The notes below the pieces were generated by a model. The model ran no database searches. It was not told the origin of the DNA and was given only the letters and a program-made list of their open reading frames with translations. Source: an uncultured Thermoplasmata archaeon (GTDB taxonomy: Archaea; Thermoplasmatota; Thermoplasmata; UBA10834). From it: a DNA stretch of 64,000 nt. Position numbers and translations under genes: made by a program. Of the stretch, positions 16,441-63,770 are shown piece after piece. Position 1 is the first letter of the stretch. Every line of letters starts with the position of its first letter. The DNA lies in assembly GCA_963719945.1 (NCBI GenBank), contig CAVRDX010000004.1, positions 256,001 to 320,000 on the forward strand, in the 5' to 3' direction.

Positions 16441-17103
16441 ATGGACTTCGAAAGGGCTAGAACGGAGCTCGTGGCGCATCTGAGGCGGAGCCGCTTCCTC
16501 AAGGATGATCGGGTAGCGGATGCGATGCTGAAGGTGCCTAGGGAGGAGTTCGTCCCGAGCTCGATGCGGGAAGAAGCGTACACTGACTCCCCGCTCCCGA
16601 TCGGTTCCGGGCAGACTATATCCGCCCCTCACATGGTCGCCATGATGGCGGAAGCATCGCAGCTCAAGAGTGGGCAGAAAGTGCTCGAGATAGGCGCCGG
16701 GTCTGGATATCACGCGGCTGTGGTAGCTGAGCTTGTCCGACCAGGTGGGAAGGTGTTCACGGTCGAGCGGATATCGTCTCTGGCGAGATTCGCGGATGAC
16801 AACATAAATCGCACTGGATATGGCGATACCGTGCGGATAATCTGCGGCGACGGCTCAAACGGTCTTCCGGAGGAGGCACCTTTCGACAGGATATTCGTCG
16901 CGTGCGCCGCGCCTGATATACCTGGGCCGTTGAAGGCTCAGCTGACCGATGGCGGGAGATTGTTGGTGCCTGTCGGAGGTCGATATTTCCAGAACCTGAT
17001 GCTTGTGGAACGTAAAGGTTCGAAGTTCAATCAGGAGGATCTCGGAGGTTGCGTGTTCGTTCCGCTCATAGGTGACCACGGCTATCGAACATCGTTTATG
17101 TGA
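16441..17103 (+). CDS. pcm: Protein-L-isoaspartate O-methyltransferase
   Basis: VPREEFV, GQTISAPHMVA, LEIGAGSGY, APFDRI and FVPL. Confidence 0.95.
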   Translation: MDFERARTELVAHLRRSRFLKDDRVADAMLKVPREEFVPSSMREEAYTDSPLPIGSGQTISAPHMVAMMAEASQLKSGQKVLEIGAGSGYHAAVVAELVRPGGKVFTVERISSLARFADDNINRTGYGDTVRIICGDGSNGLPEEAPFDRIFVACAAPDIPGPLKAQLTDGGRLLVPVGGRYFQNLMLVERKGSKFNQEDLGGCVFVPLIGDHGYRTSFM

Positions 17104-19686: not shown

Positions 19687-20664
19687 ATGCATCAATACGC
19701 GGTCGAAACACAATCACTGACACGTGTCTTCACACCAAAGAAGCGAGACGGGGAACCAGTCCACGCCCTCAACTCAGTCGATCTCAAGATAGAGACCGGA
19801 GAGCTGTTCGGCCTGCTTGGCCCGAACGGGGCCGGCAAGACCACGCTTCTCAAGATACTCTGCACACTGCTTCTGCCGACATCGGGCAAGGCATTCGTTG
19901 CGGGTCTTGACGTCGAGACTCAGTACCATGGTATACGAACGAAGATCAACATGGTCAGTGGCGGTGAGATGTCCGGGTACGGGCTACTGACGGTCAGGGA
20001 GAACCTGTGGATGTTCTCGCAGTTCTACGGCATCAAGAGCCAGGTCGCCAAGGACAAGATAGACGGCCTTTTGGAGACCTTCGGGATGACTGACAAGAGC
20101 AAAGCGAAGTTGAGGACGCTGTCCACTGGTCAGCGCCAGAAGATGAATGTGATAAGGGGCTTCGTAACCGACCCTGATATCATATTCCTTGACGAACCGA
20201 CACTTGGTCTGGACGTCAATGCCAGTCGCGTCATCAGGACATTCATCCTCGACTGGCTTAAAGACAACCCCAGCAAAACTGTCGTTCTCACGACCCATTA
20301 CATGGCAGAGGCCGACGAGCTCTGCGACAGGATCGCCATCATCGACCAGGGTGGGATACTCGCATGTGACACCCCTGAGCGGCTGAAGCGGACTGTCAGG
20401 ATGAACACGACCCTCAGCATGGATGTGACCCTGATGAAGAACAGGAAGGTCTTCGAGGGGTTGAAAGGGGTCGAGCAAGTAACGTTCATCGATGATTCAG
20501 AACGCAATCAGACGCATGTGAAATTCGTCGTTCAGGACGATTCCTGCGTCTCGGACATAGTCTCTGGCGTGCTCGATCAGGGTTCCAAGATAATCTCGCT
20601 TCAGAAGACTGAACCGACCCTCGAGGACGTGTTCATCAAGATGGTTGGTAAGGGATTCGAATGA
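19687..20664 (+). CDS. ABC exporter ATP-binding subunit (DrrA-like)
   Basis: GPNGAGKTT, LSTGQRQK, FLDEPT, TTH and C-terminal PTLEDVF. Confidence 0.92.
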   Translation: MHQYAVETQSLTRVFTPKKRDGEPVHALNSVDLKIETGELFGLLGPNGAGKTTLLKILCTLLLPTSGKAFVAGLDVETQYHGIRTKINMVSGGEMSGYGLLTVRENLWMFSQFYGIKSQVAKDKIDGLLETFGMTDKSKAKLRTLSTGQRQKMNVIRGFVTDPDIIFLDEPTLGLDVNASRVIRTFILDWLKDNPSKTVVLTTHYMAEADELCDRIAIIDQGGILACDTPERLKRTVRMNTTLSMDVTLMKNRKVFEGLKGVEQVTFIDDSERNQTHVKFVVQDDSCVSDIVSGVLDQGSKIISLQKTEPTLEDVFIKMVGKGFE

Positions 20665-53690: not shown

Positions 53691-53763
53691 TGGGCCCAAC
53701 CGGATTTGAACCGGTGATCTACGCCGTGTAAGGGCGTTGTCATAACCGCTAGACCATGGGCCC
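53691..53763 (-). tRNA. tRNA-Val(TAC)
   Basis: Reverse complement GGGCCCA...TGGGCCC-A; ACGCC-CTTACAC-GGCGT; GGTTCAAATCC. Confidence 0.95.
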
Positions 53764-60094: not shown

Positions 60095-60171
60095 GGGCCC
60101 GTGGGGTAGTTAGGATATCCTTCTGGCCTTCGAAGCCGGTGACGTGGGTTCAAATCCCACCGGGCCCGCCA
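60095..60171 (+). tRNA. tRNA-Arg(TCG)
   Basis: GGGCCCG/CGGGCCC acceptor; CTGGC-CTTCGAA-GCCGG; GGTTCAAATCC; encoded CCA. Confidence 0.95.
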
Positions 60172-60986
60172 GACTTCCCAAATACTTATTGTGGGAAGGG
60201 TCATATAGGTGGAATTGGGTCGTAGCGTGGGGACATGGCATCGAAAGCGCGACTATTTCAAGTAAATCGACGAATGCTGTACGGAATTCTGGCTCTCGCA
60301 GTTGCCGTTACTGTGATTTTGGCTGGTATCTTGTACTATCTGGATGCCCACCGATACCCGTCCGAAGAAACTCCTCTCGTGTTGCGCTCCTGGGGAATCA
60401 GCTGGGTCATGGAGCAGGAAGATCTCGATCATCTATTTCTAGTGTCTCCGTTTGAGAACATTAGTTTGTTGTGGACCGATTTCGGTGGCGTCTATTACGG
60501 GAGCCCACCTCTGAATTCGACATTCCCTCGGGTGAGCATATCTCAATTCGAGCTGCCGGACAACGTGACAACATTGTTCGAGACTTACATCGTCGGTTGG
60601 CATTCCGACAACACTGTGAATGGAGTCCGCATCATTGGCGCGTACGGAGTCTTCATAACGGACGAGAATGAGAACGGCTTGTTTGACTATGGGGACGCAA
60701 TCTCTCTCTTCTATGGAGTCTATGAGAATGGCACACTGACTCAACAGGGATTTCAAAGCGCTACTGAATATGGCATAGGACTATACTCTTCAGAAAATCT
60801 CTTGCATTCATCCATACAGTTCAAGTACGCAATCCATCACGAAAGGCTTTACGCCTGGGCATCAAATTAGCCTGAAGATTGGATGGAAAGAAAGAGGGTT
60901 TTGTGCCCGAGTGCATCTTCCCCGTGATTGAATCTCTGAGTTAGACTACTGGTCTAGCGGCATGGCGATACCCACCGGGCCCGCCA
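60156..60986. mobile_element. Putative integrase-free mini-element/cassette A (815-bp unit)
   Basis: Bounded by direct repeats CCCACCGGGCCCGCCA (60156-60171, 60971-60986); one ORF; conserved arm at the right end. Confidence 0.6.
60235..60870 (+). CDS. Hypothetical single-TM membrane-anchored protein (cassette A cargo)
   Basis: 211 aa; N-terminal TM; DENENGLFDYGD Ca-binding-like loop; lower-GC codons by eye. Confidence 0.7.
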   Translation: MASKARLFQVNRRMLYGILALAVAVTVILAGILYYLDAHRYPSEETPLVLRSWGISWVMEQEDLDHLFLVSPFENISLLWTDFGGVYYGSPPLNSTFPRVSISQFELPDNVTTLFETYIVGWHSDNTVNGVRIIGAYGVFITDENENGLFDYGDAISLFYGVYENGTLTQQGFQSATEYGIGLYSSENLLHSSIQFKYAIHHERLYAWASN

Positions 60987-60988
60987 CC
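60897..60988 (+). repeat. att-like repeat copy 1 (arm plus tRNA-Arg 3' end)
   Basis: TGCATC..TGATTGAA-11-GACTACTGG-9-ATGGCGATACCCACCGGGCCCGCCACC; aligns with 62560-62650. Confidence 0.9.
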
Positions 60989-62648
60989 ATCCATAGCCAG
61001 TAATCAAGTCTCGCTTCTCAATCAGGGTCTTTAGTGTGCCGGGGTTCCTACCATTTACCGAAGGTTCGTGGGCCAAGGATTCGGTTTGAATCACCGGTCC
61101 TCATGAAGTCCCGTGACATCCATCCATTCCTGGTGTTCTCTCCTCTTCCTACGTCTATGCATTATTAGGCCCACGACCGCGACAGCAACGAATCCGACTA
61201 GAGCCGTCCGCAAGCCAGAATCGTACAGCGCGTACTCAAATCGATCTGGGTCGAGCTGGCTGGTCACATAGACAGTCACAGAAGTCTCGCCACTATCTGG
61301 AATGCGCACCTTTTGATAATAGACCACGTGTACATCCCGGCTCTCATCTGTCGCGATCGCGATGCTCTCCTCCCAAGACCATCCTTGACAATCGTCTAGT
61401 ATCTGCACCTTCCATGCTCCATCTGCGTTCGTACAGTATCTCACGGTGTGGTTGGCAGTCTCTCCATCATAGTCCTCGACAAAATACCCCATGTGGATAT
61501 CTCCGTCTGAGTCGACTGTGATCGCCACACCTGTACCATATCCTTTCTCATTTCCCCCATATGCCACATCTTCGCTTTCCCAATCGCCATCAGCATTGGT
61601 GAAGTAGCATAAGCTGTAATTGTCTCCCTTGCTTCTGTAAGCGCTGATGTACGCATTACCTGAGGCGTCATGACAGAGCGATTTCTCGCCAGGGTATCCG
61701 CCCAGATTTGGAATAACGGTGGCGTCAGTCAACTCGCCGTTCGATATGACACTGTAATTGAGTTGCCATGAGATGATAGTGTCCCATCCTAACAGGTCGT
61801 AGGTCGTATAGATCATGCCTATTGATCCGTCCGGGCGACTGTCGACATCATCGATTGAGAATACTCTGTACGGAATATATGACTCCTTTAGAATCGTGCT
61901 GTCCCAGCCTTGCGGAGTGCGTATCATATCGATGATGGATGAATTCATGTTCACGGTTGACTGCCCGGTATCTCTTGAGTAAATCAGGTGGACATTGTCC
62001 TGAGCATCGATTGCAACCTTGGCAGACGAAGGGTACCCCGTTATGTTGATCATCTCGCTTTCCCATTCACCGCCAGCGTTTGTGGCAAATAAGATGTGCT
62101 GACCATATAAGTTCATGACCGGTTTGTACAACGATGTGCACACGTATACTCTATCTTGGGAATCCAGTGCTATCGAAGCACCCTCATGGTCCCAGGATAG
62201 ATATGACAAGCAGGTGAGGTCCCATTCGCCTCCTACTCTCTGTCCGTAAAGGAGTGCATAATATGGACCGTATACTCCGATGTATGCGAGCTGAAGCTCT
62301 CCTTCAGAATCCCACGCCAACTGGTAGAACCCGTCTCCGGCAGATGTGTAACCGAGTTCTTGAGTTGGCCACCGAGAACTTGTCATGTACTCCCAGGCAA
62401 AGCTCGATGTGAAAACCAGGGCGGCTACGACAACTATGCCAACAGTTGCTTTCCTAGTTGTGTCCATTTCCACTCCACCGTGCAAATCCCAAGATGCTTT
62501 TTCAGTATTAAGAATCCACGTGTGCTGCAGAGTCGATATGCACGAAGAGAACTGTAAGTGGTTTGTGTCGAATGCATCATACCCATTGATTGAACCTCCG
62601 TGTCTGACTACTGGCACGGAATGATGGCGATACCCACCGGGCCCGCCA
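60971..62648. mobile_element. Putative integrase-free mini-element/cassette B (1662-bp unit)
   Basis: Bounded by core repeats 60971-60986 and 62633-62648; inverted arm motifs at both ends; one ORF. Confidence 0.65.
61091..62467 (-). CDS. Surface beta-propeller protein with N- and C-terminal TM helices (cassette B cargo)
   Basis: About seven blades of type SIALDSQDRVYV / VAIDAQDNVHLIY / ITVDSDGDIHMGY; C-terminal TM plus RRRKRR; GGTGGAG upstream of ATG 62467. Confidence 0.8.
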   Translation of the reverse strand: MDTTRKATVGIVVVAALVFTSSFAWEYMTSSRWPTQELGYTSAGDGFYQLAWDSEGELQLAYIGVYGPYYALLYGQRVGGEWDLTCLSYLSWDHEGASIALDSQDRVYVCTSLYKPVMNLYGQHILFATNAGGEWESEMINITGYPSSAKVAIDAQDNVHLIYSRDTGQSTVNMNSSIIDMIRTPQGWDSTILKESYIPYRVFSIDDVDSRPDGSIGMIYTTYDLLGWDTIISWQLNYSVISNGELTDATVIPNLGGYPGEKSLCHDASGNAYISAYRSKGDNYSLCYFTNADGDWESEDVAYGGNEKGYGTGVAITVDSDGDIHMGYFVEDYDGETANHTVRYCTNADGAWKVQILDDCQGWSWEESIAIATDESRDVHVVYYQKVRIPDSGETSVTVYVTSQLDPDRFEYALYDSGLRTALVGFVAVAVVGLIMHRRRKRREHQEWMDVTGLHEDR

Positions 62649-62650
62649 CC
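62560..62650 (+). repeat. att-like repeat copy 2 (arm plus tRNA-Arg 3' end)
   Basis: Same motifs and spacing as copy 1, offset 1662 bp; last 27 bp identical. Confidence 0.9.
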
Positions 62651-62768: not shown

Positions 62769-63770
62769 ATGATGTCTAGAAGAACTCATGCGGGTTGGCA
62801 AGTACGCCGAGCATCTTCTGACGATGCAGGGCCCATAGTGGCGCTAATCAACGCCCACGCGCGGCACTACTATGGCGAGGACCGTATTGGATTGGATGAA
62901 GTGAGGACGTGGTTCACCTCCCCGGGCGTAGGACAGGACGACACGCAATCTTGGTGGTGGGATGACGGCACGCTTGTGGCTTATGCACAGGTCTACCGAC
63001 CTGGATTTCCGGGTATGTGGGACGTACTACACGATGTTACGGTTCACCCAGATGAGGCTGGTAACGACGAGCTTTGGAACGATGCCTTTGCATGGTGTGA
63101 CCAGTATCAATGGAAGCTGCGACATCAGTCTAGCACATCACATACGAGCATGGTCTGCGGGGCTCGCATCCATGAGAACGACGTAGACAAGCGTAGACAA
63201 TACGAATCACGGGACTTCAAACATATTCGAAACGAGACTCTGATGCGGATTAGATTTCCAGAGGTCGTGTCGAAGGACGTGGCAAATCCAAGCGGGGTCA
63301 CGATACGCGAACTCGACCTGGAGACTGATATGGATGCCTATGCGATGGCTTATGGAGAGGCGTTTCGCGATCACTGGGGCCACGTCGACATTCCGCAAGA
63401 CGAGCAGGTGCGCAGAAAGAAGGCGGAGTTCAAGTCCTGGGGTCAGATGTACGTGCCAGGCCTGTGGTTCGTCGCTCTTGACGGTGACACAATCGTGGGG
63501 AGCGTCGGCAGCTTCCTGAACTTCGGCAATGTCCCAGGACGCTGCTATCTCTATCATGTATTCGTGCGTCGCGCCTGGCGTAACCGCAGGATAGCTACGA
63601 CGCTTCTCCGCACCACATTCCATGAGCTGCAGCAACGCGGTGGGAGGATCGTTGAGCTGCATGTCGATTCTGACAACATGACGTACGGCCTTGAGCTCTA
63701 TCGCGGTCTTGGTATGAAACCGGTTTGGCACCAACGTTTGTACGAGAAGGCGGTCCCGATATCCTGCTAA
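62769..63770 (+). CDS. Tandem-domain GNAT acetyltransferase (MshD-like architecture)
   Basis: VHPD, EAFRDHWG, VRRAWRNRRIA, LHVDSDN and LYRGLGM. Confidence 0.85.
   Translation: MMSRRTHAGWQVRRASSDDAGPIVALINAHARHYYGEDRIGLDEVRTWFTSPGVGQDDTQSWWWDDGTLVAYAQVYRPGFPGMWDVLHDVTVHPDEAGNDELWNDAFAWCDQYQWKLRHQSSTSHTSMVCGARIHENDVDKRRQYESRDFKHIRNETLMRIRFPEVVSKDVANPSGVTIRELDLETDMDAYAMAYGEAFRDHWGHVDIPQDEQVRRKKAEFKSWGQMYVPGLWFVALDGDTIVGSVGSFLNFGNVPGRCYLYHVFVRRAWRNRRIATTLLRTTFHELQQRGGRIVELHVDSDNMTYGLELYRGLGMKPVWHQRLYEKAVPISC

Follow-up and report, generated by a model that had tools for sequence, protein, structure and literature searches.

A tRNA-Arg(TCG) gene in the genome of an uncultured archaeon of the Thermoplasmata is followed by two short units, each of which carries one gene and ends in an arm and an exact copy of the last 16 nt of the tRNA. 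On balance, we slightly favour the reading that this locus is a hot spot of stacked, integrase-less mini-elements equivalent to cis-mobilizable elements (CIMEs). The window, that is, the whole stretch of DNA that was analysed, comprises 64 kb (G000:C4:256001-320000, where G000 is the genome carrying the locus, a 1.78-Mb assembly of 4 contigs that is 87% complete), and locus coordinates are given as window positions. According to the favoured reading, the 3′ end of tRNA-Arg(TCG) would be used for integration by integrative elements that are specific to this Thermoplasmata family and recombine via a tyrosine integrase. The 16-bp repeat would act as the recombination core, the ~95-nt arm ahead of it as the P arm, and the partial, inverted arm copy behind it as the P′ arm. 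The units would be miniature elements consisting of one gene and attachment (att) arms, stacked by successive site-specific recombination at a core (tandem accretion), and removed or exchanged via recombination between any two cores. The integrase would come from elsewhere, either with an autonomous element landing at the same tRNA or acting in trans.

The features of the locus are listed below, with c1 and c2 denoting the cargo of cassettes 1 and 2. Arms were scored with model R1, a sequence-only covariance model of arm plus core built from 9 copies in five genomes.

60095–60171, + strand: tRNA-Arg(TCG) gene (ARAGORN; Rfam RF00005, 59 bits)
60156–60171, + strand: core copy 1, the last 16 nt of tRNA-Arg(TCG), putative attB/attL core (pattern search)
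60172–60234, + strand: left end of cassette 1, without a recognisable P′ arm (sequence; no match to the arm model)
60235–60870, + strand: c1, cargo of cassette 1, 211 aa with one predicted N-terminal transmembrane (TM) helix at residues 12–39 (open reading frame (ORF) and TM prediction)
60894–60970, + strand: P arm of cassette 1 with blocks A (GCCCGAGTGCA), B (CCCCgTGATTGA) and C (ACTACTGG) (model R1, 86.6 bits)
60971–60986, + strand: core copy 2, putative attR of cassette 1 and attL of cassette 2 (pattern search)
60987–61048, − strand: P′ arm of cassette 2, which repeats part of the P arm in inverted form (CATAGCCAGTAAT ... TTCTCAATCAGGG ...) (reverse-strand arm matches right after the core)
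61091–62467, − strand: c2, cargo of cassette 2, 458 aa (ORF and TM prediction)
62555–62632, + strand: P arm of cassette 2 (model R1, 86.4 bits)
62633–62648, + strand: core copy 3, putative distal attR (pattern search)
62769–63770, + strand: GNAT acetyltransferase gene (PF00583, 59.5 bits), with a host-like GC content of 55.1%

A pattern search of the window returned exact copies of CCCACCGGGCCCGCCA on the + strand at 60156, 60971 and 62633, against a chance expectation of 0.03 matches. Three copies were reached in 0 of 100 shuffles, and no copy beyond these three was found anywhere in the 1.78-Mb assembly. The start-to-start spacing of the cores is 815 and 1662 bp, giving two units. Core copies 2 and 3 have 27 identical nt in common (ATGGCGATACCCACCGGGCCCGCCACC), upstream of which lies the homologous arm (78% identity over 89 nt, E 2e-12 within the genome). 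This arm of ~95 nt precedes both copies and is absent from the tRNA. One ORF is present per unit, and the two ORFs are oriented in opposite directions (c1 +, c2 −). Both genes encode membrane-anchored proteins as judged from predicted TM helices, c2 having an N-terminal TM or signal segment in addition to a C-terminal TM anchor. A Pfam search with c1 and c2 gave sub-threshold matches only, with no Pfam family for c1 and weak BNR/beta-propeller matches below the cut-offs for c2. The cassette genes have a GC content of 48–50% (c1 48.0%, c2 50.1%), compared with 53–55% in the flanks and 53.6% for the window.

An earlier, sequence-only reading of the window had proposed this anatomy, and the follow-up bears it out: the exact repeats of the tRNA end, the homologous arm foreign to the tRNA, the unit sizes with one gene each in opposite orientation, and the membrane or surface nature of the cargo were all recovered. 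Its further claim that the units are free of integrase likewise stands. No PF00589 or PF00239 recombinase was found by Pfam search on the contig that holds the window, the two PF00589 matches of G000 lying elsewhere in its genome, and the single ORF of either unit contains no recombinase domain. A tblastn search with two family integrases as queries detected no integrase similarity in units 1 and 2, and no serine recombinase was found in the G000 genome.

The arm recurs across the family. A search of relatives with a profile built from the arms, as the sequence-only reading had suggested, reveals a dispersed element: model R1 matches 39 of the 46 genomes of the same Thermoplasmata family, usually with several copies per genome, which often lie in same-strand runs with a spacing of about 0.9–2.5 kb. 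In a sample of the class, R1 matched 11/15 genomes of this family vs 0/135 genomes from 28 other families. The arm runs into the 3′ ends of tRNA-Arg(TCG), tRNA-Arg(CCT) and tRNA-Ala(TGC), as well as into an Ala-like core and a CCCTCTGCCCCCA core. Alignment of 51 distinct arm copies reveals the conserved blocks AAgGGGTTT, CCGAGnGCA, TGATTGA, TaCTGGC and gCG with variable spacers between them, and the three blocks first noticed in the window correspond to the last three of these. Right after many cores, window core 2 included, an inverted partial arm copy follows (CATAGCCAGTAAT ... TTCTCAATCAGGGG ... TGCACTCGG), and the same P′ consensus is found directly 3′ of tRNA-Arg(TCG) in G006, G005, G026, G036, G015 and G027. 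The P arm, the core and the inverted P′ arm together make up a whole site of ~180 bp that is attP-like. Judged from these sequences, the view that the repeats are att cores and that the arm is the attP-type arm of a tyrosine-integrase element family is supported.

Several other identities of the arm were considered. A miniature inverted-repeat or other terminal-inverted-repeat transposon with a target-site duplication was rejected: such elements insert at varied targets and duplicate a different short sequence each time, whereas the flanking repeat is always a tRNA 3′ end in the copies examined, and the inverted arms flank the core as parts of attP. A coding arm or an SSV-type split integrase was also rejected: both window arm copies contain stops in all three + frames, the one − frame checked in arm copy 2 contains a stop as well, and there is no similarity to integrases. 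In the SSV type, attP lies inside the integrase ORF and the insert comes to be flanked by Int(N) and Int(C) fragments, while in this family the integrases are intact beside the att site. A scan of IMG/VR with the arm pattern gave no match, and a viral origin was set aside.

Stacked single-gene units with a conserved site after each recall an integron, an analogy that the sequence-only reading had drawn. Were the locus a genuine integron analogue, its arm would serve as an attC-like site that recombines as a folded single strand, alongside a dedicated platform and a common promoter, and short self-complementary stretches in some arms could be taken in favour of this. However, 18 arms folded as single-stranded DNA, with shuffles as controls, gave z-scores of −1.8 to +1.0 and no shared helix, and RNAalifold on 9 arms found weak pairs only, with a covariation term of −0.2. 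The 51-copy alignment likewise does not uphold compensatory hairpins at the ACTACTGG block. Moreover, the cassettes run in opposite directions, and each must consequently use its own promoter, which rules out a common one. The integrases described below belong to the usual tyrosine recombinases that target tRNA genes and lie beside att sites, and do not represent an IntI by an attI. In its strict sense the integron analogy is not supported on these counts, and we regard a true integron analogue as very improbable. The lack of a single-strand fold together with the opposite gene orientations instead suggests that the locus works like CIMEs in tandem accretion.

Even less credible, to the point of being negligible, is that arm plus core constitutes a structured RNA gene, whether tRNA-like or a piece of a split tRNA. 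The sequence does terminate in the acceptor and T-stem strand of a tRNA, CCA included, and is conserved over 95 nt, but Rfam matches only the tRNA at this locus and not the arm, and neither a stable fold nor a covarying helix is seen. The partner strand of the T-arm is absent, the arm is fused to unrelated tRNA ends, and an inverted copy occurs on the other side of the core. With no fold, no Rfam match and stops in the frames checked, the arm is best read as a set of putative protein-binding blocks on double-stranded DNA.

Tyrosine recombinases are found beside the same arm, as had been anticipated from the window. On contig C2 of G000, a 365-aa tyrosine recombinase (PF00589 32.9 bits, with a weak match to a SAM-like N-terminal domain; L007:997-2180 = G000:C2:21651-22828) is followed by an arm of the window's family and the 3′ end of tRNA-Leu(CAG). 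It is the only member of its family in G000. Across the Thermoplasmata family, related integrases occur in 38 of the 46 genomes, and the full-length copies are typically found immediately next to a tRNA gene, namely Leu-CAG, Ile-GAT, Val-GAC, Val-TAC or Arg-CCT. Many matches to this integrase family span only the C-terminal 50–70 residues and are therefore read as decayed genes, so decay does occur in the family.

At tRNA-Arg(TCG) itself, an integrase is present in G027, where the order is LeuC, LeuD, tRNA-Arg(TCG), P′ arm and integrase, the integrase ORF ending 3 nt from the tRNA. This protein shares 38% identity with the integrase on C2 of G000 and scores 45.8 bits against PF00589. By sequence and position, an integrase of the G027 type is the best candidate enzyme class for the sites in the window. 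When genome contigs were scanned with the G027 integrase, the only match was G027. A further instance is provided by G004, which belongs to the same genus as G000 and carries an array at tRNA-Arg(CCT) (L140:3438-14100, G004:C34). There, the tRNA, a P′ arm, a 377-aa integrase, cargo and a P arm with core form a 6.9-kb element. Behind it lie two units without integrase, of 1.3 and 2.3 kb, both of which terminate in arm plus core. The middle core is a degenerate end of the tRNA-Ala(TGC) type, and cores are thus mixed within one array. In this array, an autonomous element and small units can be seen side by side. The hallmarks of tRNA-targeting integrative elements are accordingly present, namely direct repeats of a tRNA 3′ end and, in autonomous members (G027, G004 and G000 C2), a recombinase beside the att site, with PF00589 scores above the cut-off in all three. 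We infer that integrases of this kind act on the arms of the window.

Two further observations concern the surroundings of these integrases. In G000, a host-like hydrolase gene lies beyond the tRNA-Leu(CAG) 3′ end on C2, and an intact tRNA-Leu(CAG) is located 5.6 kb from the end of contig C1, followed by a P′-like arm (G000:C1:900492-906198); the end of C1 and the start of C2 may form one integrated element of at least 28 kb, with further arms having tRNA-Ala cores. In G018, a family integrase abuts tRNA-Val(TAC) (L141:3252-4581, G018:C1) in a neighbourhood that is syntenic with the window's tRNA-Val(TAC) at 53691–53763, and G005 carries an arm with a tRNA-Ala-type core ~200 nt from tRNA-Val(TAC).

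A comparison of cassette content across relatives, also proposed in the sequence-only reading, reveals that four sister species differ by units. G000, G010, G006 and G005 share flanks at 90–96% nucleotide identity, the left flank comprising LeuC, LeuD and the tRNA, and the right flank a 252-aa ABC-2-type gene with its neighbours. Between these flanks, the content is as follows, where c2′, u1 and u1″ are labels for units in the sister species.

G000: c1, c2, then the GNAT gene
G010: c1 (at 93%), c2′, then five genes
G006: u1, c2′ (at 85%), then two genes
G005: u1″, then a 387-aa gene

Homology between the sister species breaks at the cores. In G006, the stretch of 57 nt directly behind the tRNA is 96% identical to the one found behind core 2 in G010. 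From this shared stretch and the unit contents it follows that c1 pairs with c2 or c2′, and that c2′ pairs with c1 or u1. In each of the nine congeners examined, the sequence diverges starting with the base behind the tRNA end ...GCC(A). The more distant congener G008 has a 34%-identical homolog of the 387-aa gene within ~120 nt of the tRNA and no arm, and may, from its sequence, represent an empty site. A scan of metagenomes for strain variation yielded one contig, which is of the G006 type and covers only 600 nt downstream of the tRNA, and it provided no evidence at the population level. The tRNA-Arg(TCG) site is thus a swap site for putative surface-protein genes, with the sister species carrying other units there, and a putative role in varying the cell surface fits the predicted nature of the cargo.

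Such differences could in principle arise through homologous recombination alone, between repeats of arm plus core (~110 bp) within the array or with incoming DNA, and with no site-specific recombinase acting on the units. The arms are 75–96% identical over ~100 nt with 27 identical nt at the core, and breakpoints can be resolved no finer than arm plus core. This explanation, however, accounts neither for repeats that end exactly in the 3′ ends of several tRNAs, nor for one integrase family abutting the same arms, nor for a first junction that lies exactly at the tRNA end in every congener. We consider it improbable.

The c2 unit has counterparts outside the sister species. Homologs of the c2 protein were found in G009 and G019 (64% amino acid identity in both) and in G065 (55%), each at a tRNA-linked site, and none was found in the closest species. 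In G009, the gene (67% nucleotide identity) lies inside a complete unit of 1699 bp, consisting of core, P′, the gene on the − strand, P arm and core. This unit uses a different tRNA core, GGTTCAAATCCCTCTGCCCCCA, and is followed by another P′ arm. In G019, the homolog lies directly behind tRNA-Arg(TCG), and in G065 behind tRNA-Ala(TGC) with arm remnants. As to c1, its ortholog in G010 (91% amino acid identity, ratio of nonsynonymous to synonymous divergence (dN/dS) 0.34) has a dS of 0.125 between G000 and G010, below the values for leuD (0.45), the 3′ end of leuC (0.55) and the ABC-2 gene (0.21; pooled Fisher p = 4e-5). This low value suggests a later exchange of the cassette, although differences in dS among genes can also have other causes. 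In G036, a relative of c1 with 27% identity similarly has an arm behind it, together with the GGTTCAAATCCCTCTGCCCCCA core.

The conserved G009 unit, the perfect cores, the unit sizes near 1–2 kb and the low c1 dS support movement as small units. These observations have to be weighed against an explanation by decay, in which internal deletions left each unit behind from a larger element that formerly encoded an integrase. On this view, the att copies would be fossils, and neither unit would ever have moved, or be able to move, as a small entity. Many family matches do consist of an integrase C-terminus only; autonomous elements carry the integrase right beside P′, and losing both would yield exactly the anatomy of cassette 1. 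Similarly, the cores of G006 are degenerate (3–4 mismatches), and the cognate integrase is absent from the G000 assembly. Against this, neither window unit contains an integrase remnant, common as such fragments are in the family, and cassette 2 retains both arms and perfect cores. A 1.7-kb unit of gene plus arms with the same boundaries at another core, as in G009, is unlikely to result from independent deletions. The same-strand arm spacings cluster near 0.9–2.5 kb across many genomes, and the c1 dS is below that of the flanking genes. We judge decay unlikely as the account of this locus, while giving it real weight, and suggest that the units may travel as intact entities instead of just degenerating where they lie, and that they may still be mobile in G000.

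A number of observations weigh against the stacking of mobile mini-elements. Cassette 1 lacks a recognisable P′ arm and may consequently be the right-hand remainder of a larger element, and the integrase C-terminal fragments that are frequent in the family attest to decay in place. The ~110-bp repeats of arm plus core could be shuffled by homologous recombination. The c1 gene occupies the same position in G000 and G010, which gives no direct evidence of transposition, and no circle junctions or excision products were seen. Among the 30 tRNA-Arg(TCG) loci examined, only that of G027 has an integrase within 1.5 kb, and the 87%-complete G000 assembly contains no Arg-type integrase. Finally, in the complete genome G018, Arg-core arms are found between 70 kb and 1.3 Mb away from the tRNA gene, which shows that an array need not stay anchored there and can be separated from its anchor. 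One such pair of arms in G018 bounds a 2.55-kb unit 1.3 Mb from tRNA-Arg(TCG) (G018:C1:366686-369331, L018:4687-7332), with an ABC transporter ATPase and permease pair as cargo.

Among known systems, the stacked mini-element reading finds its nearest counterpart in the CIMEs related to ICESt1/ICESt3 of streptococci, which have no integration genes, keep attL and attR, undergo tandem accretion at the 3′ end of a target gene, and stack beside or await an integrase-bearing element able to use their att sites (PMC5704250). The window units similarly have neither integration nor transfer genes and one ORF each, and they keep cores at both ends and a P arm homologous to the integrase-adjacent arms, with P′ present in cassette 2 and missing from cassette 1. 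The G004 array, too, mixes one autonomous element with integrase-less units. In contrast to the streptococcal elements, the system described here is archaeal and its units are far smaller (0.8–1.7 kb, one gene), numerous, and free of conjugation genes. CIMEs derive from autonomous elements by deletion and excise or transfer together with an adjacent integrase-bearing element. With respect to such an origin, integrase fragments are common in the family though absent from these units, and the c2 unit recurs with the same boundaries elsewhere; its occurrence at another tRNA core suggests that it has spread in this small form and has not only decayed.

Tycheposons of Prochlorococcus offer a second comparison. 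These tyrosine-recombinase elements at tRNA genes leave partial tRNA copies, and successive integrations push older elements inward, with degenerate remnants and extra partial tRNAs scattered in the islands (bioRxiv 10.1101/2020.12.28.424599). Targeting of tRNA genes by a tyrosine recombinase, partial tRNA copies and successive integrations are common to both systems; however, tycheposons are bacterial, carry their own integrase and often replication modules, and that work describes no conserved ~95-nt arm on tiny integrase-less units. In archaea, elements with tyrosine recombinases are known to re-use one tRNA site and to form arrays (PMC6563490), and the archaeal integrases have been reviewed (PMC8371274). 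The arrays described are made up of multigene proviruses, plasmids or cryptic elements with integrases, and not of runs of ~1-kb single-gene units with one arm family. While arrays at one site are known from archaea and bacteria, CIMEs and accretion from Firmicutes, and tRNA islands with partial tRNAs from Prochlorococcus, we found no description in the literature of family-wide, ~1-kb single-gene integrase-less runs with a conserved arm at archaeal tRNA genes.

Integrons, finally, share with the window system stacks of mostly single-gene, recombinase-less units that end in a conserved recombination site and vary in content between relatives. The window system differs from them by having no IntI or attI, by the missing folded-strand signature, and by the use of a tRNA 3′ end as anchor. 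Its cassettes lie in both orientations, whereas integron cassettes are mostly promoterless, co-oriented and read from a common promoter. A functional analogue is nonetheless conceivable, and we put it forward tentatively: an independent cassette system of single-gene mini-elements with a double-stranded attP of ~180 bp, captured, stacked, excised and exchanged at several tRNA genes by a few trans-acting tyrosine integrases, with mainly surface and defence genes as cargo. Should the units indeed move as integrase-less cassettes, they would permit a cheap, modular swapping of single surface-protein genes at tRNA genes, in parallel to integrons and to the elements that build genomic islands in marine cyanobacteria. 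Little is understood of gene flow in uncultured archaea. The arm, which can be searched for, flags recently acquired genes in metagenome-assembled genomes and accounts for the breaks of such assemblies at these loci.

Two parts of the locus deserve further description. At the left end of cassette 1, an inverted repeat CTTCCCA..TGGGAAG is present, together with an M-like motif (GGTCATATAGGTGGAA, 60199–60214) ~20 nt ahead of the c1 start codon. In other copies, the M motif recurs 3′ of cores and 5′ of P arms. It may represent a promoter of the cassette or some further binding site. The form CCATAGGGGCGGAAGA, often extended by AAGCCCTTAAG, occurs just after cores or just before P arms, with instances at window positions 60199–60214 and, in G000, at C1:902699, 903894, 904613, 862613 and 479419 (all −) and 88191 (+). 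The best genome-wide matches all lie inside tRNA-linked islands; at 3 mismatches, the total number of matches is no higher than in shuffled controls, and only close matches count.

The GNAT acetyltransferase gene beyond core copy 3 may be the chromosomal flank, or else an older third cassette that has lost its right arm. In G001, a 70%-identical GNAT homolog is bounded by a degenerate core on one side and a degenerate arm plus core on the other, the core-like sequence ahead of it occupying the same place as core copy 3 of G000. No arm remains 3′ of the GNAT gene in G000.

Elsewhere in G000, a tRNA-Leu(CAA) is followed by 7 more copies of its 3′ end (ATCCGGGCCCTCGCACA), spaced 1.0–7.5 kb (G000:C1:139110-155738), each copy being preceded by an AT-rich arm of ~100 nt whose family differs from that of the window. 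Among second copies of tRNA 3′ ends, and only there, four sequences surfaced that contain full 5′ and 3′ parts of a tRNA with an insert (G000:C1:~861500-861595, C4:~19760-19870, C4:~16810-16930 and C4:~108100-108220). These four are absent from the ARAGORN list and are probably intron-containing tRNA genes (Val, Glu, Ser and Thr).

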